A stretch of DNA of 62,903 bases, the filler included, from Hausera hauseri (Eukaryota), in NCBI GenBank assembly GCA_046269625.1. It is 12 parts of 12 records of this genome, joined end to end, with 100 filler letters (N's around TTAATTAATTAA, not from the genome) between each part and the next. Parts side by side here need not be neighbours in the genome. Positions count along the whole stretch, not along the records: positions 25,582 to 30,301 come from JBJURY010462134.1; 11 more parts are not named here. One strand, given 5' to 3'. Positions 4,514 to 55,300 of this stretch are shown here, piece by piece; the stretch's first letter is position 1, and every line of letters starts with the position of its first letter. The notes under the pieces are model-generated. The model was not told where the DNA came from, ran no database searches, and was given only the letters and a program-made list of their open reading frames with translations. The translations under genes and the position numbers were made by a program.

Positions 4514-5290
4514 TAAATCGAAGGTACATGAGATTGCTGAGATGGTAAGCATCTCACTTAAACATGTGCGCAACATTTTACATAATTGTTTGAACATGCG
4601 AAAGCTATGTGCTCGATGAGTGCCGTGCATGCTCACTGAGCAGCAAAAGTTGATTTTTCTCAACATAGTTTGGAAACGTTCAAGCATAATTGGAAGGAAT
4701 TTTTGCGCCACTCTGTAACTGCTGATGAAACATGGATACATCTCTACACAACGGAGGCCAAGGAACATTCAAAACAAATGGGTGAAAACTGGTGGAATTG
4801 CACCAAAGCGGTCGAAAAGGCAACAATTGGCTGGCAAGTTTATAGCAATTGTTTTTTGGAATGTGCATGGTATAATTCATATTAACTATCTGCAACATGG
4901 AAAAACAATCACTTCGCTATATTACAGTGAATTATTGGATCTATTCGATGCTGCAAACAAGGCAAAACAAGCAAATTTAGCGAAGAAAAGTATTCTGTTT
5001 CATCAAGACAATACACCGACTCATAAAGCAATTAAAACGATGGCCAAATTGACCGAATTGGGCTATGAATTGGTTCCCCATCATCCGTATTCTCCAGATT
5101 TGGTACCCTGCAATTAATATATGTTCCCAAACTTGAAGAGGTGGTTACGTGGCCTAAGATTTTGCTCAAATGAAGATGTTATTGCCGAAACAAATGCCAA
5201 TTTTGACGAATTGAGGACAGACTACTATAAAAAGGCACGAAGTGTATTGAGTAGGAAGGCAACTACGTTGAATTTTCGCAAAAAGGTCCG
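4514..5290 (+). mobile_element. Mariner (DD34D) transposase remnant
   Basis: CARW(*)VP, VTADETWIH, FHQDNTPTH and HHPYSPDLVPCN motifs, with frameshifts and stops. Confidence 0.92.
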
Positions 5291-6779
5291 AGACTTCAAA
5301 CCGCTTATTGTCATTTTTATACAGGTAATTTTATGATGTTAATGCAACATTTACAAATTTATTATCCAATTTAATAATTTTGTGAACTGTTTCACATATC
5401 TTACAATCAGAACTATTTGCAGATTAGTCCCTAAACAATATGTCCCGCTTCACTAAATCGGTAATTTTATGATTTATTAGTCATTGTTAATTCATTTTTG
5501 GTAACGGAAAAACTCGAAATGTTTTCGTGGTAAAAATGGGGAAATATTGATGAAAGATGTGTAAATATGGTGAAAATTATAAAAATAGGTGAAAATATGC
5601 AAATGAGTGTTTTTGTGGAAAATGGTGCAAAAATGAGGTTTTTATATAGGATGAAAGGTCGGTTTTGCTATCTACTCATTTCTTTGTCGCTGCATAGCTA
5701 ATTTATGTAGTGACGTAACGGACCGTGGCGTGGGACTCACTGACATAGGACAGACGGCCGGGCAATCGGTCACACTGTGATGCACCCGAAAATTCGGGGG
5801 ACCGAATCCCCTCCAGTGGGTCAAGTCAGAGATACAAACCTCAATTTCGGTATGTATCTGTTGCCACAAAATGCTGTCGAAAAAGAGTAGCAATTCAATT
5901 CCAATGAGTTGTGTACGGGTACAAAACTGCGTAGCAGCCCAAGTGGAAAAAGGCGAGACATGTTGACGGAACATATCGGAATGTATCATAATTTCCCCGT
6001 CATCACCAAGTTTCAATGGTAATAAAACTCCAACATCGGTGAATGTCAACAAGTATGGAACAGAATGTTGTAAACTTGGAGCACTTTTCAATTTCTTCGA
6101 AAAAACGCCAAATAATAGTTTAAACTTCGCGTACGAAGTATGTTGGTAGAGAATTAAAAGTTTGCCGATAGTTTTAAAATATTTCTCGGAATTAGTACAG
6201 TTGTAAAGTAAGCGGAACAACGCAGCCCTCCATGTGGATAAATTGCAATGACCATTTCAACGAGTGGAAAATGTTTACCGGCGCCAAGAAACAATACTTT
6301 AATAAATGCAAGGAGGAAAATTCCGCATGAAGTGAAAATTTCCATCACGTTTACAAGAGAAATAGCTGAATTCGGGAACAGAATAACTTCAGTGACCTCG
6401 GGCGACTTGACAGGGAAGGAGCTATCGCGATTCTTAAATTGATTGGGGTAATGAAAATCAACAGTAAAACGATATATAAAAAATATGGCAACAGCGGGAA
6501 ATAAAATGTTTTTAAAAGGTATAAGAAAAAAACAGTTGCTGACAAATCTGCACACAAGTATCACTCTTATCCCATCGTGCACCAACGATCATAGCGTGGA
6601 AGTGTCAATAAAGACCGTAGAGGAACATAGTGATTTCTTTCACGCAACATCTCCAAAACGAAACTGATTGACCCATTGACCGAATGCGTCAGGTTCCATT
6701 CGTGTCTCGTCTATTGCCAACGGTAACTCACCATGTGATACACTGATGTCACGGACGCAAATTGCCACCGGCCAGAATC

Positions 6780-8778
6780 TGGGTGTTTTCTGAGATTCCG
6801 AAGAAACTCGTTCGATTTGCGTAATCAATTCTCTAACGATTTTTTGATGGGCTGTTACTAAATCGTTTTGACACGAAGTGTCTAGGAAGGCTTTAGCAAT
6901 TTGTTCGGCAAAACTTGCATAGTTCAAAACAAACGGTAAAATTCCGCAACGGGATTTCCTCGATATAAAATCACGGAAGGAAGCAATACATCCATCTATA
7001 AAACTGTTAAAAGACCGCTTGGCTTGTAAAAACAAAACGCCCCAAGTTATCTGAAGAAACTCGTACGAAGAGTTGTCAAATTGTCGATTAACAACGACAA
7101 CCCTACGAATTTGATTTGAATCGTGTTGTTCTAGTACTTGGATGAAAGTGGTTAAATGATCAGTAAGTTGAGCAAATACGACATTGGATTCTTGACACAA
7201 ATATTCGATTTTCTCCATTGCACCAGTTTTCATATTGAATGGTTCGTTTCGCTCGGATGAAAGTCGACAATCAAGTCAGAATAAACAAACCGGAAATTCT
7301 TTTTCAAGAACAAGAGGTTGTAATTTAGACATAAATGCTTCAAAAATAATTTCGAAATTATCCGATAATGCAAGTCTGACGGGATCACTTGGAATGCTAC
7401 TACCGGTTTCCATTGCATGTTTTCCTCAAAGTTTATCGTGAAGCTTTAGGTGTGTGCGATACTACTTTAACAGGCGTGCCGGATTGACCTTTTACAATCA
7501 ATTTGTTTCGAACCATGTCGATAAGGTTAGATATTTCTTGATTGTACACCGTAGACATTTTTTTCAGATATACCAATTGTAAATTTTGGAACAACTTCGG
7601 TTGATTGTTTTTGAACCAAATTATGAAATCAGCGAACGGTTCTAATTCAAGTCGACTGTTACACTGCGTGTCTATAAGTTTATCAGCGTTTCCTGTTGAC
7701 GCGCCCATCAGTTTATTGTACAATCTCCTCAGGGCATTATTAAATTCCGTTGCGATGTTTCTTGAAATGTCATCGGCTATTTTATTTATTTTGATACTGC
7801 TGAGATCACCAAAATTGAGATGAGTTAAGGGCTTAATGTGATTTTGTCCTAATGTAATGCGTTCAAGCAACTGTTCAAGAGTTGCTTGCAAAAGATCGCG
7901 ATTACGACTTGTAAGACGTACGATTTCATCACGATCTCTAAGACATGACATGGATGACTCGACTTCTGCAAGAAAGAGTTCATATATGGAAAATTTACTT
8001 TCCAACTGTTCGATTTGTTCTGTCGCCGAGTCAAGATTAACCATCAATTGTAGCAGTTGATTTTCCGATGACATAATCGAATGCACGTTAGTACCTTCCA
8101 TCGCTAATAAATGTTGTCGCAAATATTGTCTACTGAAATTCAACAGCATTTATAACAGCATCCGTTGCTGCAAATTTTCTTCTTCTTCCGTATTCAAATT
8201 TGGGTTTCGACTGAAGTCATCTTGATCCTGTACGGTTGAATCCCCGTCAGCATTACCGGAATCCAGTGTTGTTGATTTTCCGGGACTATAGATTTCTTCA
8301 AGGTTAATACTAATCGGTAAATGGATGAATGTAATGCAACTGAAAAGAATGACATTTTGCAAGTACATAACTCGCATAAGTCCATTAATAAATCTATGTT
8401 TATCCTCGATCATATTCGCAAATATCCGTTTACTGCTTCCGTCGGAACATTTGAATTCTATATCAAAACTTGGTTGATTTGGTGAATCATGACAATCAAC
8501 ACATGTTAAATTTTTGACGACTGAAATTAATTTCCGTTTTAATTCATTCTTTTCAGATTTCTTAACAATATAGATGAAAATATTCGGTGAATTATTCATT
8601 GAGACTAAAATAAGGTAATAAAAGTTCAAACTTCGAAAAAAGAAAAATAATCTAACCAGATAGAACTAAAATTGCCTTCTTTTTCTTATTTGGTGTCGTT
8701 GACACATTTATATGAGATTCAATTCGCTCACTAAAGCTATAGAAATATTTAAGAAGAGTATCTTGAGAAACATCCATG
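6780..8778 (-). pseudogene. EXOC1: Exocyst complex component 1 (Sec3) disrupted copy
   Basis: LAMEGTNVHSIMSSENQ, NFEIIFEAFMSKLQPL, KSRCGILPFV and ERVSSESQKTPR match EXOC1. There is an in-frame TAA at 8150-8152, further disruption near 7430, and similarity ends after KTPR. Confidence 0.8.
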
Positions 8779-13675: not shown

Positions 13676-15800
13676 AAAAACACGTTCCAATCGCCGTTGG
13701 TATGTTTGTTGTCCCAATAAAAGTGGTCGGTCAGCGGTAGTATTACGTCTTTCACGGCTGGAATTGTGTACATGATTTCCTGCAGCGTTTGGAAACGATA
13801 ATGGAAACGGAAATTAAGCCGTGGTATCGCAATAATTCCATTAAACCATTGATTTGGATAGATGAATATGAATCTCTGATGTTCGGTGCGACCGATGAAT
13901 TTTACCTCTGCCACAAAATATTGCCTTTTAATGCACAGGAACGGCTCGTACCGGAACATAATAAATTCATCGGTCGATATCTGGGAGCAGCATGCCACTC
14001 ATGCAACTTAACAAGACGTGTGAGGCCATTCTTACCGGTGACCTTCCATAATTTCCGAGGTTATGATTGACACCATATACGGAAATGGGTCATCAACGGA
14101 TTTCCGCAGTGGGAACTGTTTATAATCCCAACAACAGTGGAGAGGTACCTGTCCCTGTCTGCTCGAATTAACCGGTTCTAGGTACGCTTCCTTGATTCAT
14201 TGCAATTTCTCAATGAATGACTGGCGAAGCTAGTAAATGCCTTGCCGGATTTGCCGATAACCCAAACACAGTTCCCCACACATATTGCATGCAACAAAGG
14301 TATATTCCCATATGACTTTGCTGTGTCGTAAGTGCGGCTTCCGACAGCAGATGAATTGCCGCAACAATGGGCCGGAATCACAAAGGATGAGTACCACAGA
14401 GCACAGGAAGCGTGGGCAGAGTTCGGCTGCAGAAACATGTTTGAGTATATGCCCCAGTATCTGAAACTGGATGTGTACTTGTTAACCGATGTGTTTCAGA
14501 CATTTCGTGCTAAGGCGTTGGCGGATGATAGGCTGGAGGCGCTAAACTTTTACTCCATACAGAGAATGAGTTGGGCATCTACACTAATGTCGCTGAACAG
14601 GAAAATTGAGCTGCTGCAAGACCCGAAAATGTACCGACTATTTGTTGTTGGTATTCTTGGCGGCATGACATTTTTCAACAAGCATCACGTAAACAGTGGT
14701 GACGATGATACAACATCAATGTTGTACATCGATGTTAATAACCTGTACGGCTGGGCGCTTTCGCAACCCTTTCTGTACGGTTTATTTAAATGGATAATGG
14801 ACAAACAAGAACTGGATACATTGCTGGTTAGTCTGCCAGCAGCAGCAAACACGACAGAAAGCAGCTCAGTCGGCTACCTAATAGAAGTCACACAACTGAT
14901 TCGTTCAATCCGCTTAAATCAGGCGCCGATATTCAAGGCGTACATTGATGGAAATTCAGAGAAACGAGCTGCAGCTTGTACAAAGTTCAAAAAGGACTAA
15001 CACAAGTTGAAAAATAATTATGTCTACGGCAAAACAGTAGAGAACCTCAAAAGCCACTCAGTGTGTGCCTATGTAACAACGAAAAGCGACTAGTTACGTA
15101 CACCAGAAAGGCTCAGTTTAGGAAGTCAATGCATATCACCGATGGATTGGTTGCAGTGCTGTTGAACCGGGAAGAAGTCGTACTGGACCGACCAAGCTAT
15201 ATCGGACAAGTAGTATTGGACCTGAGCAAGTTGCGAATGTACGAGTTCCAGTATCGCGACTTGACACGTTACCGGCAAATGTTCAACGGCTGTGAGATCA
15301 GTATCGTTGCCGGTGACACAGACAGCTTTTCAGTGAGCTGAAAAACGTCAATCTCCACCAATTGTTTCGGCAAATGATGGCAGATGGACTACTGGACACG
15401 TCCAATTACCTGCAGAATCACCTTCTGTATAGCAACGCCATCACGAACAAAATAGGCTGCTTCTCGGATGAAAGTAAAGGCCGTGCCAGATACCGGGAAT
15501 AGATATTCCTGCACCTAAAGTGATACAGTCTGTTGAAACGCTGTGGACCGAAAATGCTGGCAAATATAGTCCAGTTAGCCCAAACAGAAATTAATCACAG
15601 TGATTATCGCCGTGTCTATGAAGAAGGACAACCCGGTGGAGAGCAATAAAAGGCTTTTGTATCTCAAACGATCATCCGATCAATTGAGAACCAGCTGTAT
15701 GCTATTACTAACTCTAAAGTCGCTTTACCATGCAATGATGATAAGCTAAATTGGGTGGGGCGAAATAAAAGTTGGGCGTACGGACATTGGCGTTTGAGAT
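13676..15800 (+). mobile_element. Protein-primed family B DNA polymerase (Polinton/adintovirus-like), decayed and 5'-truncated
   Basis: FHNFRGYD (ExoII), YLKLDVYLLTDVF (ExoIII), YIDVNNLYGWAL (motif A), KLKNNYVYGKTVEN (motif B), AGDTDSF (motif C) and a Cys/His insert in the exonuclease. Many stops. Confidence 0.9.
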
Positions 15801-18470: not shown

Positions 18471-20790
18471 ACTCATTTTTTATATCCATCACATATTTTA
18501 CGTCTGAAGTTATTTACATACTCTCTGAGCACACACTCAACCATATAGGTAACATTTTAAACATAAAACTATATTTACAATATGTACATTTTGCTTGTTC
18601 CCATGTCAAAGGATATTCCAAAAGATTTTTTGATAGCGTTGCCAGTGACGTAGGTAAGAATGGGAAAGAGTCGTTAACGATGAAATATTGCAGATCAGAG
18701 AAACACGTATTGGACGTGCAATATTGGTTACTAAAATTTGGTTGAAAAGCCAACAAAAAATAATCATTTCGATTGATCCAATGAAAATTAACGGGAATTA
18801 CAGTCTTTAATGCGTCACTCGTTGTTTGCCGGAGACTGTAATTTCTGTTCGTGAAAAATTAGTGGTAGTGGGCAAGTGTGATCACAGTTAGTAAATATTA
18901 TTTCGAGTAAGTCGTAACACGAGCTATTTCAAATAATATTGTAGTATGTTAGTCTTTATTGTTAGTGTACATATTAGTGTAACCAGTATAGAATTAAACT
19001 TCATGGGAATCTGTGGTCTTTGTGTTTTCTTTTTAAAACAATTTGAAAATTCGAGCTGGAACGATTTAATCGATTACACGCCATCACGAATATCTTGTCA
19101 CGCTCAACTAGCCCCGCATACAATGTGTTAATGGTCGAAGGAAAACGATAAAAATTTTGTTAATACGTAAAATTCTTCTGCATGTAACGGTGAAAATTGA
19201 CGAAGTGCGAAATGACGTAATATTTTGAACGCCATATTGCATAATCTTAGCTTTATTTGCAAAAATATTTTTCATATTTTTAATCAGCATAAAATATTGT
19301 ATTTGCAGAACTTGTAAAATTTCGACTAGTATAAATTGCTGACCTTTGTAATCTCATACGTTGGATTATGAATTTTCGAAGGATATATGCCCTTTTTTAA
19401 ATTTAATTGATGCAGCAATTTTGTTTTAAAATGATTTTATTAAAATAAAGTAATTTTAGAGTGTACTACAACTTCACATAAAGAGTTATTATGTAATAGC
19501 ATTGACGTCTGAAGTGAGCTTGACGGATGAAGTGAGCTGTTTCCACTTCCCTATCGATATTTATTTTTGTTACTGTAAGAAGTTTGCCTAGCAATAATAT
19601 TTTACATTTTTACCTTGTGTTCATGTTTTATTTTTGGAACAGCCGACCATATAGGTTTAATAATTGTTTAAATGCTGGACCCCAGAATCCAAAATGTAAT
19701 TTTATTATTGATGTTTTCAACTGTTAATCTCCGTATATGTTACCAAATGATACCCAAACCTTAATAACTTGGTCAAAATATAATAAAAAAATCGTTTCTA
19801 ACGTTTATCTTCGTTTTGTAGGTCGGTCTGGAATTCCTTGAATCGTTTTGTCAGTCAATTTGGGGCTTAGATAGTTGTCTCACAGTTATCTGTGAAGTTC
19901 CTGATCTGCTAGTTCAAAGATCATTTCTGAAGTTTGTTGCTGAAATTTACGTACGATCAGAAAGCAACATGAAATCGAACAAATCGGTTCTTACAGACGT
20001 GTAAGAATTGGCTAATTTAACTAACGTTTCTTTTGTAAAACCCTACCAGCAGCGAGACACCATGGTGAAGGTATATCGCAAATCAGTTACATTCAGTACC
20101 TATGGTAGACAACTAATAACGAAGTATTGCAACGTCTTGTACGCACAAAAACTTATTAGACAAATTGTACTGTTTGTTCTCAGGATTTTCTTTCAATCTC
20201 ATCCCTAAAGTTTTTCAACTCAGCCACAGGGGGTATTGTAGTGCCTGTATCAACCTTTTGTCATTGTACTTTTCTTTCTTTCGTGTTTCTTCATGTAAAT
20301 TTTATGTACATAGTTTTTCTTATTTTTGAGATAGTGTTGTAAGTTATTCCATATTGTTAATTTTGTAACATATTTTATGGCTTTATTTTATGTTAGAAAT
20401 TTATTTTCACTTTAATGTGTGATAAACATGTGTAATTTTGTTTGTTTGATTAGGTTGATTTATAATATGAAATTTAATTTTTTTTGAAACAACTGCTGGG
20501 GTTCCTGGATAACAGCCAAATTCTCTTGATTTTGCGATTTTCAATGTCATTGATTTTGTTTGAAACGCACGAAAACTCAGACTGAAATAAAAAGCAATAA
20601 TTGAATATTTCAAATAAATATTAATAACTCTTACATGATTTTTTCTGTTGGAAATTTGTATGAAACCGACAAACAAAAGGATATGTTATTAGTTATAGAG
20701 TATCACAAAATTCCCGGATTTCAACATAATGATTATATTTGGTTGGTGCAGAGAAATTTGGTAGATAACATTTCGATGCACTAACACAAT

Positions 20791-22739
20791 GTGGTTAAAA
20801 ATTTTGAATTTATTAACTTTATTATTTACGTCGAAGGGTCAACGGCCGATATGAATATACTACAACGAAACTACAATTGGTGTCAGAAGTTGGATTCGAA
20901 CGTAAGCCACCAGTCTGCGATCAGAAACCAGCGTTTTCACAATGGTGTTGCAGCCGGTCTTATGATATCGTCATATAACGATAATATCGGTCCATCTTGG
21001 ATTTTGCAGCAATGGAATTTGAAACAACGGAATGATAAGATAGAACTTACGGCTGAACAGGCTGGAATTATGTTTGGTCTTGGTCTTAATGGAAATTTGA
21101 ATAAACTCGATAGGAAAACTATTGGCAGAGAATTAAAGTCATTGAATGGCATGACTACAATGGCATTTTTAATTGGACTTTGTGCGTTTAACATGGGATC
21201 AAAGAATTCTCTTCTGATGTCCTACATATCTATTCATTATGGTCGTATGTTGCTAGATGACAGAGATAACAGTAATCAAATCCCCTCCTTATCAAAAGTC
21301 GCCTAAATCATTTCCGCGGGGTTAGTAAATTTCACATTGGGAAACCAACAAATGGTACGATCTTTAATTGAAGAAATCAGACGATTTAGAGAACAACTGT
21401 TGACAGAAAAAATTGGTTGTTCGGATATCGAACACTCTGCAACAACTGTAGGATTCAGCGTTGGATTGATATTGTTTCAACATGGTGACATGTATAGAAA
21501 ACACCATAATCCCGATGAATTGATACCTTTGTTGCGGTATCTGAAAAGCGATTATCAATTTCCTATTGCGAAAAATTATATGGGCAGTATTCAGGATTCA
21601 CAGAAGAATATTTTGAAGAATTATGACCCGAAAAAGCCACAAATAATATCGCATTCGTTGAATTTTATTGGTTTTCAAAGTATGACTTCCAGATTTCAAG
21701 AAGGTGAATGTTACAATATGGATATCACGAGTCCGGGTGCTGCTGTGGCACTACGAATGATATTCATGGCTTCGAATAACGAATCAATAGCCAGTGAATT
21801 ATAGTGTCAAAATACGTTTTATCTTTTGGAAGATATCCGTCCTCCAGTTTTGTTTTTCCGTCAAGCAGCCTATGGTATGATTATGTGGAACGGTATTCTA
21901 CCGATACAACAATGGATAGATAGTATGATCCCGCAATTTACTTCCCGTAAGGCTCTGCAAGCCCAACCGACGGATATTGTTGAAAAACATATTGTGACGG
22001 CCAATGCGAGTTATCTTCAGTTGCTCGTGGGGTTATGTTTTGTAATGGCCATGCGAAATGCTGGTACGGATGGTCTTGCTACTATTCTTTCGCACATTGA
22101 GAAGTTATTATCCATCAAAAACGATTGTGAATTATTTGAGAACATTGGCCAATACTTTTATGATTGGATTTTATCCACTCTCTTTTTATCGGCGTGCATG
22201 ATTGCATCTGACACTGGTAATTTAAAGCTGTTGCGTGTGTCTCGAAATCTCTGATCAATAAATCGAGCTAAAGATACACTTAATTACGGTGTCTGTATGA
22301 TGTATTCTATTTCCATTGGGCTTTTATTCATGGGCGACGGAAATCTAACTTTATGTAAACCTCCAAAATCCTCTGCACTTCTTCTTATAGCTTTTTTCCC
22401 AAGATTCCCTTTAACCTATTCTAGAAATAGATACAATTTGCAGGCATTGAGACATCTATATGTTATTGCAACACGACTACGAATATTTTGTGCTGTTGAT
22501 ATTGACTATCAGAATGCTGTTCCTATCAGTTCCAGAGTAAAGTTCAAAAACGATATTAAAGAGTCTCATGGCTGTGTTGTATTCCCTCGTGAACACCCGT
22601 CATTAATTAATGAGATTGAAGTACTTGATTCCAAAGGTGAAGATTTTCCACAGATTTACAAACCAGGTACGGAATCCTGGAATGTATTACGCGAGTCACT
22701 GTGCAGTGGTAGATACTCTTTCGTTATAAAGAAATTGTC
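20791..22739 (+). pseudogene. ANAPC1: Anaphase-promoting complex subunit 1, C-terminal PC-repeat region, with in-frame stops
   Basis: FHNGVAAGL, AGIMFGLGLNG, NMDITSPGAAVAL, SIGLLFMGDG, NRYNLQALRHLYVIA. TAA (21304), TAG (21802) and TGA (22252) interrupt one frame. Confidence 0.9.
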
Positions 22740-22894
22740 TGTTATGCCATTAAAAGACATAAAGTTATCACTTACTAAGAATCCAGCCGATAAAATACGT
22801 GGAGATACCACGCTTCCCATCGTGTTGTTTATCACCGCCATTATCCATCTACCTTTCTGTAAATAATAAATTAATACATACTGCACACGTAACA
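22740..22894 (+). repeat. Putative LTR of the adjacent Gypsy element
   Basis: TGTTA...TAACA inverted termini with an internal AATAAA. It begins about where APC1-like coding ends. No canonical PBS seen. Confidence 0.5.
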
Positions 22895-25370
22895 CAATGT
22901 ATCGACACAATACAGTTATATTACCTCATTCATAAAGACACCGCCTTCAAGGACTTCTATTTGACTCACAATGGATTCATTTTAACTGACCTCCCACACA
23001 TCATGTTCTTACAATACTACCTCTGTATTCACATCCACCCTAGAATCCGCGGCGGTATGATTTCACCAACCAGTGACATCACCGATAAGGTAACCACAAA
23101 ACCAAAATCCGTTGTCTACTATGCAAAATAAAACCACCTAACTCCTTCAACCGATAATTAGCTTTTCTCACAAAAGCCCTACAATTACACCTTCACATTG
23201 CTCTGAATACCTTACAGACAATGAAAACTCTAGTAATACTTGGCTCCATTTCCATCAACTTGGGCTACAATACAACGGCATTATCGACTCCTTAACCAAA
23301 GTCCATAATCTACTCTACCTTCTACCAAACTTCATAAAGACCTCAATCCATAACTTACTGGACATATTTCAACATCCTGACCCTTATACGCAATTGTTCA
23401 ATGCTGTATTAAAGCTAACAGAACCACCAATTGATTCGATAATACAACGATTCTTTAATGAAAACGCAATGGGGACACAAAAACTTAGTGTTTTCTTACG
23501 CACTTCGTTGGCACACTTACGTACCCTGGGTGTCATCAAGGAACACAATCCGGATCGACTTTGCCGATATTTCCTTAATGCTTTACCCATTCAAATTAGG
23601 GCTTTACTTACGGTTGTTGAGAATTCTACAGCTTTAGATGAACTAGCTGAATTAGCCGATAAAGCACATGAAGTTTTACAAATACAATCACAACCCATCA
23701 TATCAGCAGCAATTACAACCGACGACAGTCAACAACATACATCTATCGAACATCAATTGAACCAATTACGCTCCGAAAATGCGGCACTACAACTAACAAT
23801 TAATAACTTCAATGATAAGCTGAACGACCTTTTATCACATCGGCGGAATGCTTCCTCCCTCATCGAACCCGTTCTTTCTCAAGAAATCGAACACCGCCAC
23901 CAACGCGGTCATTTATATGTTATTATCATAACAAATTTAATAACAAAACAAATAAATGATGTCTAGGCTGTAGATATTATTCCTCGCATCTACACTCAGG
24001 TAACATTGTTTGCATCTATCATGCAAAATTTTGATCTAATGCTCGGAATTGTATTTCAGGCTGTAACTATAAAACTAACCATAACTACACCACTGATAGA
24101 CGTCCCAGTTTCTTTAACAATAACCGTCCAAACTCGCCAATCCAAAAAAACTAATTTCGCCGCCAGTATTTACGGCAGAATCTAGCAAAGGCAACTTACC
24201 TAATTCTCCTTGCCGACACACTTCTTTGACAGTCTTTACACTAAAACCTGCAATCTCCACTTCTAACATTTAATCCATAGACTTTTTATTCGACATCGGT
24301 GTAGCAATCTCATTACTACCACTTTATTTTTCGGTTCAACATTTTCGCTTAAAACAAAACCTTCATACACCGCCTCCGGTCAACCCCTTTATATTGTCGG
24401 AACACTTCTCACTATTTCATTGGAAGTTTACAGTCGCTAACGTCCAGACAGCAATACTTGGCTCCAATTTCCTGGCGCACAATAACTTGCTAGTCGATTG
24501 TAATTAACGATGCCTAAAACCAAATACACCTGAAGACTGTAGTACAGGAATAGGCAGCACACCGACGACAACACAGCCAACAGTAGGTAGGCAATCAGTC
24601 TTAAAACAGTCAATACCTCATACCAATTCTCTTAATTATCACGTTTTACCTCGTAAGCTTTCAAAGGACAATGTTGATAGTCAGCTCAATGTCGACTCTC
24701 ACGATCTTGTGTCTTTATTAGAATCACTAAACAACACCACTTACTCAACTAATGTCTTGTACACGACCATTCTACATGAAATTCAACTCGATTTCCTACC
24801 AACAATGAACCAACATTCACCAAGTACTGCCAGCAACATCGGTCCATTGCCACTTCCAATATTCCAGCAACTACCCGTAAGTTTGCAACAAATCATCAAT
24901 ACTTCTTGTCCTCGTATACTTCAGAAAGATCGGAACTTCATCCCTATAAACGGCATTTACCATCATATAATTACACGACACCAAAGACCAATTCGTCAAA
25001 AGGTTTGTCCATTGTCACCTCGTCGCATGCAGACAGTAGAGGCGGAATTTTGTGAACTCGAGCAATCAGGTATTGATCGTAGATCTAAATCCCCATGGTC
25101 TTCGCCCCTCCACGTTGTCCAAAAAAGATGGATCATTCCGACCATGCGGCGATTATCGCCATCTTAATATTTTAACCATAATGGATGCATATCCATTACC
25201 ATTGATCAAAGACATTACATCGGCTTAATTCTACTACATTGTATTCAACAACTGATTTAGCAAAAGCGCATCACCAAATTTCTGTCGCACCGGAAGACAT
25301 TGAGAAAACTGCAGTTACCACACCTTTCGGTCTTTATGAGTACTTGTACATGCATTTCGGTCTCCGGAAA
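22740..25370 (+). mobile_element. Ty3/Gypsy LTR retrotransposon, CsRn1/Boudicca-like clade, decayed (gag, protease remnant, start of RT)
   Basis: Gag FLNALPIQIRALL...LDELAELADK, CHCC zinc motifs, AAAAAAC-TAA slippery site at 24145-24154, RT start [12 protein letters not shown]...CGDYR...DLAKAHHQI...KTAVTTPFGLYEY. Confidence 0.88.
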
Positions 25371-25581: not shown

Positions 25582-28500
25582 CGATTTTATTTCTTTTATT
25601 TTTATTTAACTAGATGTTAGTTTCATCTACTTTTTGAACCATGTATGGACATTTATACTAGTCTGTCTAATTTTGGTGTCTTTCCTTTTTTATTCAGGGA
25701 TGTATAAAGCATGACCTTGTCTCCAGGTTTAAAGTCATGTGGTTTAACTTCTTCGTCATAACGATCTTTATATTCCTGTCGACATATTTTTATGTGACGT
25801 GAGGCTAAATTCCATACATATCCTAATTTTTGTTCTAATAATTCTTTATACTTCATGTCTTTTAAATGAGAGACGGGCATTTTAAAATCTAAATCAATCG
25901 GCATGAGTATCTCTAAGATACATCAAATAAATAGATGTTTCTTTTTGCAGGTTAAATTGTATTTCTAATTGCAAACAAGCATGGTTTGATATACTCGTCC
26001 CAATCGTCCTGTCGTTCGTTAACCATGGAAGCCAACACATTGGTTAAGATTCCATTAAATCTTTCTACTGCTCCGTTCGTTTGAGGATGGTGCGGAGTGG
26101 TTTCAACTGTAATATCTAAAATATTTTTGATATTTCCGCCATAACTTCTCCTGTGAAGTTCGGTGCTTGGTCCGTCAATAATTTGGTTGGCGCTCCATAA
26201 TTAAAAACAATTTCTTCGACAAAGGCTTGAGCAATAGTTTGGGCTTTTTGATCTGATATTCGTACCACAAATGGCCATCTAGAGAATAGGTTGACGAACA
26301 CTAGCATGTATTTATTTCCATTCATTGTCATAGGTAGCGGTCCTAGAATGTCCATTGCTGAGAATTCCATTGGAGCTGGTGGGCATTCCAATGGTTTGAG
26401 AGGAACTTTAATTTTTGAACCAGTGTTCTCCCTAGTAACACATATTGAGCAACTCTTGCACGAATTTTAAACGTCTTTAGTCATAGTGTGCCAGTAATAT
26501 TTTCTTTTCAATCTTCCTAAGGTTCCTTTTACTGATTGGTGTCCTCCTATTATACCATCATGATATTGTATCAATAACAATTTTATATCTTCTTGGGGAA
26601 CAACTACAACTGGTTTTCCTTTATAATAATAATATAATACATCATTCTTTATTTCATAATTTTCGACAAACTTTTTTATATTGGTATAAAGATCAATGTC
26701 ACTTGGTATTACTTTTCTCTTTAGGTATTCCTTGATTTGTTTAATTTGTTCATCATTTTGCAGTTTTTGTAATAAGGATTTCTCTTGTTCTATAATGCTC
26801 CATATAGCTGCTATGACGCCTGGTTTATCCGTGGATTCTTCGATTTGGTCTATATCTTCTGGTATTCTTGACATATAATCTGCATTAGCATTCGCTTTTC
26901 CCATTTTATATTCAAACTTCAAATCATATGGTTGAAGCAACATAGCCCATTTCATCAGCCGACTATTTGGATTCTTATGGTTTTTCAACCACTGCAGTGG
27001 TTTATGATCAGTGTAAATAATAATCGGTTTGGTTTCTGATAAATATTGACCATATTGTTCTAACGCATAAACTATTGCAAGTAATCCACGTTCAATTGTT
27101 GAGTAATTCTTTTCATGTTTTCTTAATTTTCTTCCTCCGAACGATATAGGATGTTCTTGTCCCTGGTCATCTTTTTGAGATAAAACTACTCCAATTCCAA
27201 CTTTACTGGCATCCGTTGCTAAGATATATGGTTTTGACATATCTGGGTATGCTAATATAGGTGGAGCCAATAGGTTATCTTTTAACTGTTGATAGGCCTT
27301 TTGACATTCTTGTGTCCAAACAAGTTTAGAATTTTCTTGTAATAATGCATGCAACGGCGAAGCTATCTGTTGATAATTTTTAACAAATTTTCGATAATAA
27401 CCTGTGAGGCCGAAAAACTTTCGGACTCCTTTAACTGTCTTAGGAACTGGAAAATCTTGAATTTTATTTACTTTTCCAATTTGAGGACTGATACCTTATT
27501 GGCTTACCGTATGGTTTAAGAAGTCTACTTTGGTTCGAGCAAAACAGCATTTCTTTAAACTAACCTTTCTTCCTAGAAGTGCACATCTTTCTAACATATC
27601 TTTGAGGTGTTAATCTACGCACATACTGATAGATCCATCTTTCTTTTGTACCATTACAATAGGAGCTGCCCATGGCGAATTACTTGGTCGGATTATGTCA
27701 TGTTGTTTCATTTCAGCTATTATTTCTTTTGCCCTTTCTCTTTTATCATAATTAAGCCTGTACGGTCTTTTTTAATAGGAGTCTCCATTCCTTGCTTTAA
27801 TTTAATTTTATGCTTGATAACTGGTATTACTCCCATATCGTATTCATCTACAGTGAATACATTTTCATATTGGTGCAATATTTTTATTATACCTTCTTTT
27901 TCTACATCTGTTAGTATGCTGTCCTTTCCAAACAAATCATAATCATTCCAATTAATAGGAGTCTTAACGGGTTTCGATATTTTCTTATTTTTATTATGAT
28001 TACTTTTCAATCTATTTATTGGTTCATTTTCTAGCCGTATTCCGCTTTCTTTTCGTGATTTGTGTCGTTCTCTTTCCATAAATTCGGACAATTCTTGTAC
28101 AGTGGAGATAATGGCTTCTGTTGCTTTATTGCCTACATCTTTTGTAGGGTATATGTAAGCGATTCTTGTGCCTTTCCTTACTAATTTTGATTTATTTGAA
28201 ACATTGGCTATTCGAACAATTACCTGTTTTTCTCGAATATTATCGATTGCATGAGCAACCCATAATTCACTTTTATCCATGAAGTTTACATTTGGTTCAA
28301 TGTAGACATCTCCCTCATCTCGACCTTCTACTAAAACTTTAAGTACAACCTCTGTCCTAGCTGGTATTAATACATCTTCTTTGATAGATACTGTATCCTT
28401 TTTCTCTTTCTTAATTCTCCGATATGGTTGGATTTGTTGAGTTTCTAAATTTATACACATATTCTTCAATTTTGCTAATGCATCGCATCCCAGTATAGCT

Positions 28501-28937
28501 TCAGCTACTAATTCATCGGCTATTCTAAATTCTTGTTCGAATTTTTGATTAAGGACTCTTGTTTCGCATTTGATTAAATCTTTTACATATACTTTAGTCC
28601 CGAATGCTCCAATATTCGTAATATCCTCTGTGGGTTTTTGTAACTTCTTTTTTAATTGCTCCGGCAGCTGTTTTCGTGAAATTATTGAGGCTGATGCTCC
28701 TGTATCGCTTACTTTGGTGATGGGGTATCCATCTATCCATATTACTGTTCTTGGTATGACTTTACTCCCATCTATACTAGTTATTAATTCCCCTTTTGGA
28801 GCGGATGGATAAAACGTCAGCTTCATATGCTTTGGGTCATGATTGTCTATGTCACTTAAACAGTGTATATCAATGTATTCATTAGGAGACATGAAATATT
28901 GTTGTTGTTCCAACGGATGTTCATTCCACCTTCTCAT
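25582..28937 (-). mobile_element. Ty3/Gypsy pol: protease, dUTPase-like domain, RT (core deleted), RNase H, integrase
   Basis: DTGASAS protease; SPWAAPIVMV; LATDASKVGIG, YTDHKPL and ANADYMSR (RNase H); H-H-C-C and MDILGPL...TDQAPNF...PHHPQTNGAVE (integrase). The domain order is Gypsy-type. Confidence 0.95.
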
Positions 28938-30301
28938 TTGAGGAATATCTGATAGTAAAGTTCTCCGCTTTTACTTCTGGCGGTAGTCAAACTCAATGTC
29001 CTTTTAGTATCTTTAATAGATTTAGACCTTTTTCCTATCTCCTTTGGTGGAGATTTATTCTCATCATCCTCCTCTTCCTTATTTTTATTTTTATGTTTCC
29101 ATTCAGCATCCTTTTTAATCAGAAAACAGCTAGCTATGAATGGGATCAATGCATAAATAATTTTCCATGTACATCCGGCAGCTTGTTTTATGCCATAGCT
29201 CTTAGTTATCATGGTTAAAATAGCCTTTATGAAAGCAAAAATGTAATAAAATCCTAGCCATCCGGAATTAAATTGGCCGAACAACATGTACCATTCCCAT
29301 GCTGTCGCAAATATATCCTTAGCTATTTTCTTCGCATATTCTGGTCCCATCAAATTTTCTCAGTTAGCTTTGCCAGTATGATCGGCTAAACCTCTCATTG
29401 CCATTTCTGTTAAATCTTTCTGTCTTTGTTGATGAAACATCATCATTCTTCTATGATTTTCCATATCTTGCTCAGAGTATACACCCATCTTTACTAAGTC
29501 CGTTAGTGGCTTGTATGTTTGTTCTGTTTTCAAATTAATTAAACTAATCCTCCGAGGTGGAGTAATCTGTTCTTTCTTCGGCATCCTTATCCATAAATTA
29601 TCGCTTAGTCGATATGCTGGCGACATAGTGTATGTACAATTTTGATGTACATATGGTTTTTCTGCCGGGTCTAATAATATCCGAGTAATTGGTTGCAGAA
29701 AACGTGGTTTCTCCTTATACCAAATAGGTAACTCCATGGTACACTCAGTTGTTGGTCTCAATTTAACAGCTACTTTTGTGCATTCGAAAGTTACAAGTGT
29801 CTCACCCATCGTTCGAGCGAACTTTCCCTCTGCATCAGGAGATTCAGCTGGATCCTTCATTATTCCGTCCGTTATTGCCGATAGATATATTCGGTTCCTG
29901 ATTATCTCTCTGTTCAATTTACAGTCATTTAGTATTATCTCTCGATACATAGCGTAAATGTTTTCTTGTTGAAAGTGATAAATAAAATCAATCTTATTAT
30001 CAAAGTATAGATGAGGCTTTATTTCCGATTTATGAATTTTCCTTTTGGCTTTTGTTATCTCTGTTGTGGATAAGAATATTCCTTTATAATTTGTTCGAAA
30101 TACCGTCTGATCACATCTCCTGGTATCACTTTCTAATTTAAATCTCATTCCATCTTGAGGATTCGCTGAATATACTATGGTAGGGGTCTCGATCATATCT
30201 GATACTCGGTCTAATCTACTTTTGGATATTTCTTCTTTATACATTCGTCCTTTTGTTTCATTAAATTTTCCTACCTTTAACAAAGCTAACTGACATTGAT
30301 C
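28934..30301 (-). pseudogene. Chuvirus/herpes gB-like (class III) envelope glycoprotein, C-terminal half with membrane anchor; one in-frame TGA at 29360-29362
   Basis: CKLNREI...GKFARTMGETLVTFECTKVAVKLRPTTECTMELPIWY...FLQPITRIL...NCT...PAYRL...W, then aromatic membrane-proximal and hydrophobic segments (WEWYMLFGQF...YIFAFIKAILTMI; IIYALIPFIASCFLI) and a charged tail. The family call is from motif recall. Confidence 0.72.
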
Positions 30302-30401
30302 NNNNNNNNNNNNNNNNNNNNNNNNNNNNNNNNNNNNNNNNNNNNTTAATTAATTAANNNNNNNNNNNNNNNNNNNNNNNNNNNNNNNNNNNNNNNNNNN
30401 N

Positions 30402-31085
30402 GCATTGGAAATTCATAGTAGAAAATGGCATAGTAAAGACACGAAAAGGCAAGATATGGATACCAACGGATAAGAGGGAAGAAATGATAAAGCAATGCCA
30501 CGTCATGCTATCTCACGCCGGAATAGAAAAAGTAACAAAATACATAAGCAGTAACTACGACATTACAAACATAAAAGACACCGTTAAGGAAGTCATTGGA
30601 CACTTGTCAAAGAAATAAGACCGTGACAACGGGTACAAAGGAAGAGACCGTGAGACTCAATGCAAACGAACCATTCGAGAAGATCTACATTGACATTTGT
30701 AGACCGTTAAAAGAAACCTGGAGGAAGAAAAAATATATATTGGCGATCATAGACCAGTTTAGCAGATATATATCACTATCGGCAATAGCAAAACAACACG
30801 AAGGAACCATAAAAGACGCCGTGCTAAAGACTTGGATTCGCAAATTCGGCGCACCGAAAGAGATACACACAGATTGCGGAAAAGCATTTGAATCTAAGGT
30901 ATTTAAAGACATGACGGCGTCAATGGACATCAAAATGTGATATTCAAGCCTGCATAATCACAATGCCAATGGCATAGTGGAAAGGCAATTCCGAATAATT
31001 AGAGAATATGTGGGTGCGACTCTCCACGATCGACAACGAACAGATTTGGGAGAAATACTATCAGAAATCCTTTTCCTACTCGTAT
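30402..31085 (+). mobile_element. Gypsy-type integrase fragment
   Basis: CHVMLSHAGI, DTCQRNK, PFEKIYIDI, IIDQFSRY, FGAPKEIHTDCG, NANGIVERQF. Confidence 0.88.
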
Positions 31086-35217: not shown

Positions 35218-38200
35218 ATGTATAACAGGGTTCAGTATTATATATACCCTATATGTGAGGTAGTGTGCCAATCCAATTACGAAGATTTTTACAATGTCTA
35301 TTAGCAGCACTTGATTTCCTTCACCAAGTCGAAAAAACAAATATTCAGTACCAGTATGCCAATGACGACCTTCGTGCCAAAGGAAAATCAAAGATGCAGT
35401 TCATATATGTATTGCACGTGTGTAATACACAACCCTCAGAATTGCCACAATACTATGAGGAGCTATTATGGACACAAATTCAATAGGATCACTTATTATA
35501 TCTGCTCAGGATGTGAGGCTGTATGTGATGTAGAATACATACAGTTTTACGAAGATCACAAACATCATTTGACTGACTTCGCATCAAAGTCAAAGAAGAT
35601 CATATTTAATGAACATAAACCTGCAGTACATCATACAGTACCACAGCCTTCAGTACCAGAGCCTGCAGTACAGCCAGATGCAGGACTGAAACGCGCATCA
35701 GGCGTAGCGGCTCTGTCAAAAAGCTAAAGACAGCGGCTAGTTGATGCTGCAGAATTAATGAGGAAATACCGCAAATATGTCATTGAGGCAACTGGTCAAA
35801 CAATCATCTAGGAGTTCCTGGAGTACACAAAAGAAGAAACTCAGTGGATTCTTTAGGATAATATGACTGAACTCAAAGCCCTTAAATTCAATATGAAACT
35901 GGAGGCCACATACGTCAATGTTGATGGCGAAGAGTCCAAAAGGGCCTTCAAGACCCATATTGGAAAACACCAATATAGTGGAATGGCTTAATGAGGAACA
36001 TGGAAAGCTGACCCGTGAAGCCGATGAGAGCTAGGATAAGAGGAGTGGATGGACTCTGTCAATCATCAAGAGACTGATTATGTATGTGCACAAGTACTCA
36101 CCCATGCGGGGCAGCTCCTATATACAACTTCCGGAATGGATCACTAATAAAAAGGCACGTTTCAATGTCCTTAGTGATGATAACAAGTGTTTCATGTATG
36201 CCATTTTATGTAAACTCATACGGAATCAAAAACATGCTGCTGATCGAGTTTGGCTATATAAGAATGTGCAGCACAACTATGACTTCCAGTGTATCACATT
36301 CCCTACATCCATAGATGAGATCAAGAAGTTCAGTCGAACCAACAATATATCAATCAATATCTTTGGATTGGATAAGGAAGAAAAATTCAATCGTCAGCAG
36401 ATATGCGCTGTTGAATTGGAAGATCATAGAGATCTGCTCCTATTAGACGATGATGAAAATAGGCATTTCATCTGGATAAAGAACTTTGAACGTCTAGTCA
36501 GATCACAAATTACGAAACATAAAGAAAGAATCGACAATATAAACGATGCTTGTCTTATTTCAGCGACAAGTTAGCTGTGAAGAAGCTTGTAGAGCACAAG
36601 ATGTGCTGCAACAGCAATTACTGTGTAAGGCCAGAATTTCCCAAGGAGGACTATATTAAATTCAAGGAGTTCGAGAAAAAGATCAAGGTCCCAATAGTTA
36701 TCTATTCCGACTTTGAGGCTATCCTGCGTCCAGTTCAGAGTTGCAGCCCTAATTCTCAACATAGCAGCACAACGGAATACCAACATCATGAACTCTCACT
36801 GTATTGCATGTATGCCAAAGGACTGGACAGTGCACCATTTCTATTTAGAGGTCCAGGTGCAGCAGCACATTTTATGAAACGACTTGAAGACATGGCTCAT
36901 AGGCTTGAAAGCATGTTTCAGCAGCATATGGACACAATGAGCATGTCGAAACAGCAAGAAGATGAATGGCGCAAGGCAACAGCATGTTACTTGTGCGACA
37001 AGTCCTTCACAAAGGAAAATTGGAAAGTCAAGGATCACTGCCATTTTACAGGTGCATACCGAGGGGCAGCATTCAATAACTACAATCTTCGCTTCAAAAC
37101 ACGTACATATGTGCCTGTAGTATTCAAGAATCTCAGTAGTTGTGATTCCCATTTTATAATCCGAGAATTAGCCAACATTGTTGGTAATATAGATGTGATC
37201 CCATACAGTGAGGAGAAATACATCACTTTCACCAAGCATGTGGGCCGCATTAGACTTCGTTTCATAGACAGCTTCCGCTTCATGTGCTCGTCACTGGATA
37301 ATTTAGTGAAGATCCTCACTGCCGAAGAACTCAAGGAGACGAAGCGGTTTTTTCCCATTAACTTTGACTAGTAAAGAGGAAAGGAGAGTTTCCCTACGAC
37401 TATATAACCTCATAGGAAACACTGGATAATATCTCATTACCGCCTAAGGATGGCTTTTATAGCCCGTTGTTGGACTGTGATATCAGTAATGAGAAGTACC
37501 AGCATGCTCAGAATGTCTGGATGGCATTCCAATGCGGGGCATTAGGGGAATACAGCGACATATACCTCAAGACGGACGTACTGTTGCTGACAGATGTCTG
37601 AGAGTTTTAGGGATGTTACAATGAAGATACATGCTTTGGATCCGGCTCATTTCATTACGGCTCTAGGGATGAGTTGGGCAGATATGCTGAGATATACTGG
37701 TATTAGGCTGCAGATCATTAAGGATTATGATATAATTCTTATGATCGAGAGAGGCATTAGAGACGGATTATGCCAGGCCATTCACATTTATAGTAAGACC
37801 AACACAAGTATATAGTCCAGTATAATCCATCCAAGGAATCCTCATATCATACCTGGATTCCAACAACTTGTATGGATATGCAATGAGCGCCCCATTGCCA
37901 TATGATAACTTCAAATGGGCCGAACATCCTGAAAACATCCATATATTGTACCTGGATCCCGCTGGAGATACGGGCTATACACTGAAGGAAGATGTGGAAT
38001 ATCCTGCTACCATCCACGCAAGGCATCAACAGCTGCCTTTCCTCCCTGAGAGCAGGCCTCCACCCTATGGAAAGCATAGAATACTGCTTTATTATCTGGG
38101 TAATAGAGAGAGGTATGTAGTTCACTACATCAATCTCCAGCAGGAAGTTAGATATGGACGTCGTATTACCAAGATCCATAGAGTCCTACAGTTAAGTTAG

Positions 38201-52314: not shown

Positions 52315-55300
52315 TCAGCCTCCAATGTCCGTACGCCCAACTCTTATTTCGCCCCACCACTTTCGCCTATCATCGTTACATGACAAAGCGACTTTCGCAC
52401 TAGTAATTGTGTACAGCTGGTGCTCAATTGATCGGGTGATCGTTTGAGACACAACTGCTACTAAATGTCCTCCTTCTGCTGCTGCTTCTTCATATATATG
52501 GCGATAATTACCGTGGTCGATTTCCGTCTGTCTCAGCTGGGCTTCTTTTGCTCGAATTTTCGATCCACAGTCCGTCAGAAGACTGTAGCACTTTTGCGTT
52601 GGAATATCCATTCTCGATACTGAACCCGACCTTCATTTTCATTCTTGATGCAGCCGATTTTGTTGGTGATCGTGCTGCTGTACAACGGATGATCCGGTGG
52701 GTAATTGGACGTGTCCAGTAATCCATCTAACTGCATTTGCCGCAGTACCTGTTTGCAATTGACTTTTTTCAGCCGCATGAAAAAACTGTCTATGTCACCG
52801 GCAATTATACTAATGTCACAGCCGTCAAACACTTGCCGGTAACGTGCCAAATCGCGATACTGCAGCTCATACACAGGCAACTTGCTCAGGTCCAATACCA
52901 CTTGTCCGATGTAACTTGGCCGGTACCGAATGACTTCTTCTCTGTTTAAAAGCACGGCAACCAATCCATCGGCAATGTCCATTGACCAACGAAACTGCGC
53001 CTTACTCTTGTACGTGACCAACCGCTTTTTCTATTGCATAGACATACATTGAGCCGCTTTTTCATATTCTCCACTGTTTTTCCGTGCAGGGAATTGTTTT
53101 CCAGCTTGTAGTAGTCCTTTTCGAACTTTGTACAAGCTGCGGCTCGTTTCTCCGAATTTCCATATATATACGCCTTGAATATGGGAGTCTCAGCAAATCG
53201 GATTGCACGATGCAGCTGTATGACGCGTACAAAGAGCTGCATGTAGAACTGTAGCAGACGCCAATGGATCACGTAAGTCAGCTTCAGTTCATTGGTCATG
53301 AATAGTTTCTTCACTTTTGAGCTTAGCAGACATTGGTTAAATGGTACGACCGATAAAGCGTCCAAAACGTTATGCAGCTTATCTGGTACCAAGACATCGA
53401 CCTCCATGAGGTATCCGACTGAGCCTGTCATGTCTGCTCGTGGTAGGTTGACCATTGTGTCGTCCAGATCTTGTGTGTCGACTATCCATTCAAATGAACC
53501 GTACGGCAGGGGTTGCGCAAGCGCTCAGCCGTACAGGTTATTAATATTAATATACAGCAGTGATGTGGTATCGGTAGCACTGACCTGATGCTTGTTGACA
53601 AATGTCATGCGGCCGCGAATACCAACATGAAACAGCCGGTACATTTTCGGGTCTTGCAGCAGCTCGATGTCTCGATCCAGTGACATTATAGCTGACGCCA
53701 AACTAACTCCCAGTATGGAATAAAACTTGAGTGTCTCTAGCCTATCTTCAGCCAACGCTTTCGCTCGAAACGCTTGGAACACATCGGCCAATAAGTACAC
53801 GTCCAGTTTAAGATACTGGAACATGTAATCCAACATATTTCTATATCCAGCTTTGTCCAAGATTCTTGTGCTCTCTGATATTCAAGTTCTATGATGCCTG
53901 TCCATCGCGGCGGTAATTCATCTGCTGTCCAGAGTGGCTCATATGATGTTTCAAAGTCATATGGAATTATGCCTTTGCTGCGTGTAATATGTGTGGGGAA
54001 CTGCGTTGAGGTTGTCGACACATCCGGCAAGGCATTCACCAGCTTCGTCAGTGATTCATTGAGAAATTGCAATGAATCAAGGAAGCGTACCTGGAACCGA
54101 TTTATGCGTGCTGACAGGGACAGGTATTTCTCCATTGTTGTTGGGATTATGGACAGTTCCCAGTGCTCAAATCCGTTAATTACCCATTTCAGTATATGGT
54201 GACAATCATAACCTCGGAAATTATGAAAGATCACCGGTAGGAGTGTCCAAACTCGCCTCGATAAATTGCATAAATTACATGCTTCCAAGTATCAACCGAT
54301 AAAATGGTCGTGATCCGGTACGAGTCGTTCCAGTGCATAAAACGGTAATATTTTGTGGCACAGATAACATTCCTCTGTAACTGCAAACGTCAGGCGTTCA
54401 TCTTTATCTGTCCAAATCAGGGGTTTTGTGGGGTTATTGTGATACCACGGTGCGATTTCCGATTTAACTATTGTTTCCAAATGATGCAGGAAATTACGCA
54501 CACAGTTTCAGCCGTGAAACACGCAATACTACGGTTAACTTGTAGCTTTTATTGGGACAACCAACATTCCAACGGCAATTGGATTGTTTTTGATCGTATA
54601 CATCGTGCTGTGGTAGGATTGCTTCAATATCAGCATATATCACATATGCTGGACTGCCCGTTTTAGACCAGTCACTAAATCTCATCTCCTTTTTGACTGG
54701 CATGACGTATATCGTAGTTCGTGATGCATTCTGTCTGCACAGCGCCACATGTTTTCCCACGTGCTTTCTGATCTGAAGCCGTGCAGACATGTAGGACACC
54801 ATTCACAATGTATTTATTTTTGGACAAACTGATGGTGATCCATGTTCAACAATCGGTTCAAATTTGTTATAGCCACGTAATGAAATTTTTCTGCCTGCTC
54901 CAACAATAACAAATTTACTGTGCGTCTATTCAGGTTTGGACTTCGATAGATATATCCACATGTGGATTCTTGTAAATTTCTTCATCTGCCGGTATTTTAA
55001 CTATTGCATTGTACCGGAACACGTTGATTGACAGCGTTGAATTACGCCGTTCAAATGTTGAATGGTTTTTAGTTTCATCGGCATCCAGTTTTCGTCTAAT
55101 TGCAATTCGGAAAAATACTGCCGATACTGACTTGGACGATATGCATTATGTCTATCAACTTTGTCATATTTTAATAGCTCCGGAATACTGTAAATAAAAC
55201 AGTAATCATCGTCCGTGTGTCTTACTTTCACTACCGCATAAGGGTGCTTTAGAGCTTCAGGTGTAGGTATGAATGAACGTCCGGACAGGTAAATTATGTC

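Follow-up and report, generated by a model that had tools for sequence, protein, structure and literature searches.

We analyzed a 62,903-nucleotide stretch of Hausera hauseri DNA (GenBank assembly GCA_046269625.1), hereafter the window, in which one contig, JBJURY010462134.1, carries on its minus strand a fragment of a Ty3/Gypsy element with an envelope gene (env) ahead of pol. The fragment is a dead copy within a large, diverged multi-copy family and a decayed new member of the known GAG-ENV-POL Gypsy elements with a glycoprotein B (gB)-type Env, ordinary for its kind. Intact members of the family very probably make one Gag-(ubiquitin-like)-(Bcl-2-like)-Env-protease-reverse transcriptase (RT)-RNase H-integrase chain of ∼2,700 residues, with the ATGA stop/start overlap between env and protease in this copy being one of its lesions. 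The evidence comprises the env-before-pol order and domain identities on the contig, the lesions themselves, a Gag-plus-Env open reading frame (ORF) in a relative that is 82% identical in Env, and Env-plus-Pol ORFs in more distant relatives.

An earlier note on this DNA had described a minus-strand glycoprotein frame at positions 30301-28934, and we recovered this frame, with an internal stop at 29362-29360 and a terminal stop at 28936-28934; it falls into pieces of 313 and 141 codons, in place of the 307 and 139 first given. The upstream piece matches Pfam family PF24664 (Monjiviricetes_fusion; profile 245-507, E 9e-40). Both pieces match consecutive stretches of this profile, and a translation reading through the internal stop as X covers profile positions 245-637 of 653 (E 1.2e-58). 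In a model of the window env fragment built from a 23-row alignment (pLDDT 70, pTM 0.38), a central helix of 49 residues is accompanied by a beta-rich domain and by membrane helices at the C terminus. Comparison of this model with viral models (BFVD) by Foldseek gave 38 matches at E ≤ 0.001, including gB fragments and topped by chuvirus-like glycoproteins (best, 1.8e-13), and the top rows of the comparison with the PDB were herpesvirus gB. The fuller Env of a relative, P0005 (model pLDDT 78), matched herpes simplex virus 1 (HSV-1) gB at E 3.4e-13, among 115 matches at E ≤ 0.001. Based on these profile and model matches, the assignment of env as a class III (herpesvirus gB/chuvirus-type) fusogen, which the note had proposed, is well supported as a prediction. 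A PDB search by sequence with env gave no match, the ESM Atlas no usable match, and a VIA wide search nothing beyond generic matches to long helices (Z up to 6.2); a related-locus scan with the env piece confirmed no locus in metagenome contigs (75 pattern matches) or viral contigs (3).

Downstream of env, matches to RVP, RT_RNaseH, Integrase_H2C2, and rve follow one another as the note had stated, and this protease-RT-RNase H-integrase order, with RNase H and integrase of Gypsy type, identifies the pol as Ty3/Gypsy (Metaviridae). The pol is not intact, however. A deletion of ∼103 to 112 codons near 27611 takes out the YxDD motif of the RT core, and the motif is absent from all three frames. 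Relative to in-frame natural relatives, the integrase carries stops at 26469 and 26118 and changes frame near 26110 and 25950-25905. A related-locus scan with RNase H returned one distant locus (L001, 34%). We read copy variation from the contigs of four public runs, X1 to X4 (19,789 records in X1); X3 and X4 had small word shares, as did X5, a run left out of this reading. Position 29360 has a different letter in 17,232 of 17,514 of the X1 depth (98%) and in the entire depth of X2 to X4, bearing out the suspicion that the env stop is a mutation. Run contigs also have loose ends at 27611 in each of the four runs, and the two observations together mark the stop in env and the deletion in RT as lesions private to a single copy.

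No gag lies between the glycoprotein and the protease on the contig, as the note had observed. The env frame begins at the first base of the contig (the spacer starts at 30302), so that the window lacks the initial ∼40% of env as well as everything upstream of it. A longer-protein search yielded one match among 858 candidates, P0002, a protein of 1,130 amino acids (aa) that is 82% identical in env over 119 aa and groups with the window env at 100/98 support; corresponding searches with the protease ORF and with the env C-terminal piece found none, which is weak evidence. P0002 has a gag-like N terminus with a zinc knuckle at residues 197-212, a weak ubiquitin-like match at 473-522 (E 0.031), a Bcl-2-like region at about 640-756, and a hydrophobic segment at 784-802, with env starting at about 790. 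Judged by this sequence, gag belongs to the element family and lies upstream of env. GAG likewise precedes ENV in P0006, P0027, and P0101. The trees (10 pol rows and 24 env rows, all unnamed relatives, excluding pol rows of <200 and env rows of <115 aligned residues) place the window element no further than its grouping with P0002.

A profile built from P0002 and four further relatives matched 113 PDB sequences at E ≤ 10 over the segment directly before the hydrophobic stretch, and the best 60 of these 113 all belong to the Bcl-2 family (best E, 0.004). A profile of that segment finds P0017, P0081, and P0013, none of which was used in building it, and Pfam Bcl-2 matches occur below cut-off in P0095, P0005, and P0060. 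In P0002 (residues about 640-802), P0004, P0005, P0017, P0060, P0081, and P0095, the Bcl-2-like domain stands directly before the N-terminal hydrophobic segment of Env. Given this adjacency, the segment could double as a Bcl-2 membrane tail.

Relatives were taken as the 150 listed matches of a P0002 search plus their cluster mates, 17 of which reach the env C terminus. In 13 of these 17, representing 11 of 15 clusters (P0009 weakly), a protease follows in the same protein, and six of the 13 also carry RT, RNase H, and integrase. The remaining four comprise two that stop within 25 residues past the env match and two stand-alone glycoproteins, P0115 and P0132. Env before pol is a family trait across relatives and not, as the note had allowed, a one-off glycoprotein insertion.

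The protease frame, which is -1 relative to env, runs open from position 28970; its first ATG and the env stop overlap, which confirms the ATGA at 28934-28937 that the note had reported. We conclude that the overlap probably represents a frame lesion in this copy, because a 763-nucleotide (nt) contig of run X2 (record 12) has env and protease in one frame: the env transmembrane (TM) part and the protease fit as two gap-free pieces (83% and 80%) with the spacing of a single frame. This contig bridges env and protease, answering the worry that 28800-29100 might lack spanning sequence. By chance, an ATGA overlap is no rarity at frame breaks of this element, being present at 12 of 126 shifted-frame stops (5 of 80 in pol), and the three other frame breaks in pol put the chance of one in the env-protease linker at ∼26%; these figures are insufficient to settle the lesion question, and X2 record 12 is the deciding datum. 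At least 10 X1 contigs cease to match at 28964, a position within the overlap, and the X1 depth at 28995 is ∼200 versus bin means of >10,000, which argues against a conserved junction signal. The distance from the env pre-TM motif to the protease DTG is ∼192 codons in the window versus 125 to 189 in six comparable relatives.

Unlikely, in our judgment, is a real sub-lineage feature in which translation of Gag-Env terminates at the TGA and reinitiates to give Pol, with less Pol than Gag and Env as the outcome. Its fuller version appears improbable to the same degree: a flatworm sub-lineage would have split an ancestral gag-env-pol by programmed ATGA stop-restart, giving a separate, rarer Pol and a Gag-Bcl2-Env precursor that uses the Env signal anchor as a Bcl-2-like membrane tail. 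The exact ATGA overlap, its Met 77 residues ahead of the protease DTG, a chance rate of ATGA of only 6 to 10%, and the wasteful 1:1:1 ratio that a single ORF would imply all fit such a mechanism, which is known in viruses (PMC5972666), but no UGGGA core of a termination upstream ribosome-binding site (TURBS, as defined in that source) lies within 100 nt of the env stop. Env and protease share a frame in the X2 contig, conservation of the junction is poor in X1, most relatives are fused, and this copy is riddled with other lesions. Had the ATGA been conserved, it would have represented an unusual control of Pol dosage for a long terminal repeat (LTR) element.

Programmed -1 ribosomal frameshifting within the 37-nt overlap, producing a minority Gag-Env-Pol product, has the relation of the two frames in its favor, since the protease frame is open 37 nt ahead of the env stop, and -1 frameshifts are common in LTR elements. 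It is nevertheless highly unlikely here, given that 29060-28934 contains no canonical slippery heptamer (X XXY YYZ) and that the X2 contig is in frame. The note had suggested a glycoprotein "fused or translationally coupled to Pol"; fusion is supported for the family, based on the X2 contig and the fused relatives, whereas the ATGA fails as a coupling signal, with neither slippery heptamer nor TURBS core at the junction and an X2 copy that does not share it. The short contig, the fragmented assembly, and the two stand-alone glycoproteins among the 17 relatives would also suit a chance adjacency, that is, a chuvirus-like endogenous viral glycoprotein beside an ordinary gag-pol Gypsy element, or a chimeric contig. 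We regard this as extremely improbable and as largely refuted: each of the four runs covers the element contig in all 30 bins, the X2 contig bridges env and protease at near-equal spacing, P0002 joins gag to this env, and relatives are fused.

Several observations weigh against the reading of a single chain in the family and a frame lesion in this copy. The low frequency of ATGA at shifted-frame stops makes the overlap somewhat lucky for a lesion, and X2 record 12 is the single other copy observed across the junction, with 430 letters in its middle outside the view. P0002 ends inside env, before the junction. The in-frame relatives are just 24 to 36% identical in env and were read here at the level of predicted proteins; gene callers can bridge frameshifts. 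Every Pfam Bcl-2 and ubiquitin match sits under curated cut-offs, and the env fragment alone has no Foldseek match in the PDB at E ≤ 0.001 (best, HSV gB at 0.011). In the window, neither gag nor LTRs, expression, or particles were observed.

If the family does make a single chain, Gag would be synthesized in the cytosol, and the internal hydrophobic segment after the Bcl-2-like domain would serve as the Env signal anchor, threading the ectodomain into the endoplasmic reticulum (ER). The C-terminal env TM would lead the chain back across the membrane, leaving protease, RT, RNase H, and integrase on the cytosolic side. Hydropathy suggests a topology of two membrane crossings, with the ectodomain in the ER lumen and Gag and Pol cytosolic; for this to hold, the second hydrophobic helix after the TM must lie along the membrane. 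Signal peptidase and the element's own protease would cut the chain into its parts, and membrane tethering together with Env trimer formation may bring the protease domains together. By analogy with what has been proposed for errantiviruses, particles might bud bearing Env and could fuse with neighboring cells. The Bcl-2-like domain would remain anchored in the membrane and may influence cell death in the host.

Table 1. Features of the element fragment and its surroundings, in window coordinates
Feature	Position	Strand	Basis or remark
Contig with element fragment	25582..30301	-	Cut at both ends; no LTR, primer-binding site, or gag on contig; basis, spacer map
Artificial 100-nt contig spacer	30302..30401	.	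DNA past spacer unrelated
Env ectodomain, C-terminal part	29363..30301	-	Predicted long central helix, then beta-rich class III fusogen domain; begins at contig edge
Internal env stop, private to this copy	29360..29362	-	Other letter in public-run contigs
Env membrane-proximal part	28934..29359	-	PF24664 profile 522-638, E 4e-14; hydropathy
Predicted env TM	about 29263-29207	-	Hydropathy
Second hydrophobic helix of env, then charged tail	about 29173-29117	-	Hydropathy
Env/protease frame overlap, 37 nt	28934..28970	-	Ends in ATGA (28937-28934)
Aspartic protease, DTG at 28706	28464..28754	-	Pfam RVP E 9e-10; feline immunodeficiency virus (FIV) protease (PDB) E 0.004
Protease-RT spacer	27775..28463	-	BLAST homology to spacers of P0157, P0011, P0152, P0158
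RT remnant	27496..27771	-	Frame change near 27770; deletion near 27611; stop at 27498; tblastn
RNase H, Ty3/Gypsy type	26926..27243	-	RT_RNaseH E 4e-38
Integrase (zinc finger, core, C-terminal part)	25662..26601	-	Integrase_H2C2 and rve

The window consists of 12 unrelated contigs of 4 to 8 kb joined by eleven 100-nt spacers (N runs around TTAATTAATTAA), which fall within 4414-58512, and adjacency across any spacer carries no meaning. No internal direct repeat was found within the contig at 25582-30301. Neighboring contigs hold other Gypsy-like fragments unrelated to this copy, at 23142-25364 (plus strand, with RT at 24928-25364) and at 30460-31075 (plus strand, integrase). At 20785-22866 (plus strand), consecutive in-frame ORFs resembling APC/C subunit 1 are interrupted by stops and apparently intronless; this is likely a processed or element-captured pseudogene. 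An exocyst Sec3-like stretch at 6640-8665 (minus strand) shows the same pattern, with three Pfam-matching pieces and stops. Codon reassignment as a cause of in-frame stops was considered and rejected, as neighboring contigs show all three kinds of stop in frame. Fragments of protein-primed DNA polymerase B, which we take to be Polinton-like, lie at 13678-15759 and 52352-54591 and, in addition, at 36523-37371; two of the contigs are diverged copies of each other (73 to 82%). A tandem repeat of ∼49 nt in four to five copies occupies 59490-59732.

The relatives vary in their content beyond env. In P0004, P0006, P0007, P0010, P0027, P0152, and P0157, env is followed by aspartic-protease domains in tandem, two or three in number, and P0152 (4,844 aa) also has ankyrin and C2H2 matches, which liken it to the Burro elements discussed below. 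Extensions of 430 to 1,500 aa past the integrase occur in P0011, P0007, P0157, P0152, and P0023; they are mostly unrelated to one another, and four of them have further hydrophobic segments and match no Pfam family, possibly representing a second membrane protein. The env-pol polyprotein P0011 (HBK71150.1) is filed at NCBI as a hypothetical protein of a Flavobacteriaceae metagenome-assembled genome and is probably animal DNA in a bacterial bin.

The note's view of the element as Ty3/Gypsy (Metaviridae-type), with an env of class III placed ahead of pol, is supported by our analysis. The layout is not new, having been described in planarian Burro elements (2019; PMC6431247) and in GAG-ENV-POL errantiviruses (2026; PMC13524379). 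According to the latter study (Chary and Hayashi, eLife 2026), errantiviruses of nematodes, bryozoans, and flatworms carry solely gB-type env in GAG-ENV-POL order, and elements with this order are not monophyletic; nine flatworm elements are listed, six of them from Schmidtea mediterranea (Smed_errantivirus_1-6; 1 to 215 copies), with spans of 14.5 to 18 kb that include 6 kb of added flank. The family resembles Smed_errantivirus_1-6, as presented there, in gene order, class III env, Gypsy pol, multiple copies, and similar size. Our element shares the class III gB-like env (PF24664, BFVD, and P0005 matches) and has POL after ENV within the 2,000 nt that the study specifies, the frames in fact overlapping. 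The study's inclusion rule of intact RT and integrase leaves out this copy, which is no statement on the family. By eye, the P0002 env shares the Platyhelminthes C1a motifs listed there; it looks similar to the six Schmidtea rows and dissimilar to the nematode rows examined, which makes a planarian flatworm the likely host. It is near-identical to none of the six, so P0002 probably represents another family or species. On visual comparison, P0043 and P0154 are similar to Smed 1 and 2, and P0154 is 37% identical to P0002. The main text of PMC13524379 makes no mention of Bcl-2, Burro, or polyprotein.

Other env-bearing elements are less similar. Nematode endogenous retroviruses (NERVs) reportedly have a continuous gag-env-pro-pol ORF. 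They are cited (Sacco et al. 2022, J Gen Virol, doi 10.1099/jgv.0.001739) as Metaviridae elements with env before pol in PMC13524379, and they differ from our element in having nematode hosts and, by eye, env rows unlike P0002. The mosquito BEL/Pao elements with a chuvirus glycoprotein described by Dezordi et al. 2020 (PMC7642597) have the env family in common with ours on a BEL/Pao backbone, whereas the window pol matches Gypsy-type Pfam families only.

The closest comparison in domain order is with Burro/GYPSM1, giant planarian Gypsy elements with one ORF (Arkhipova and Yushenova, GBE 2019; PMC6431247). As described there, Burro encodes Gag with a CCHC knuckle, ubiquitin/SUMO-like and BCL2-like domains, env, protease, a dUTPase-like domain, RT, RNase H, and integrase; its env, with matches to mononegavirus glycoproteins, lies in frame between gag and pol, and decaying fragments are noted in Dugesia japonica. 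The domains of P0002 follow in the same order, and the ubiquitin-like and BCL2-like matches before env, although weak, are consistent in P0002 and its kin, outside the window. A BCL2 domain ahead of env is thus already published for Burro; that one segment could be shared as Env anchor and Bcl-2 tail is our own suggestion. The env-protease frame is broken in the window copy and continuous in the X2 contig and in the fused relatives. P0002 has one knuckle versus the two or three reported for Burro, and no dUTPase was found by Pfam or PDB sequence match in the protease-RT spacer (27775-28463), where Burro has its dUTPase-like domain. Burro sizes of 4,873 to 5,140 (PMC6431247) compare with ∼2,700 codons implied here: the giant Burro ORF of near 5,000 aa includes MATH, BIR, ankyrin, and Smc domains, and P0002, without a Pfam match to any of these four, reaches env after ∼790 aa.

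The window copy, being dead, brings no new principle. The family to which it belongs, a compact, high-copy Burro relative with a minimal gag-ubiquitin-like-Bcl2-like-env-pol layout, lends itself to asking how a class III fusogen folds and is excised from the middle of a polyprotein and whether such elements pass between cells in stem-cell-rich animals. The element would work like a compact Burro, yet it has neither the size nor the extra domains by which Burro is defined.

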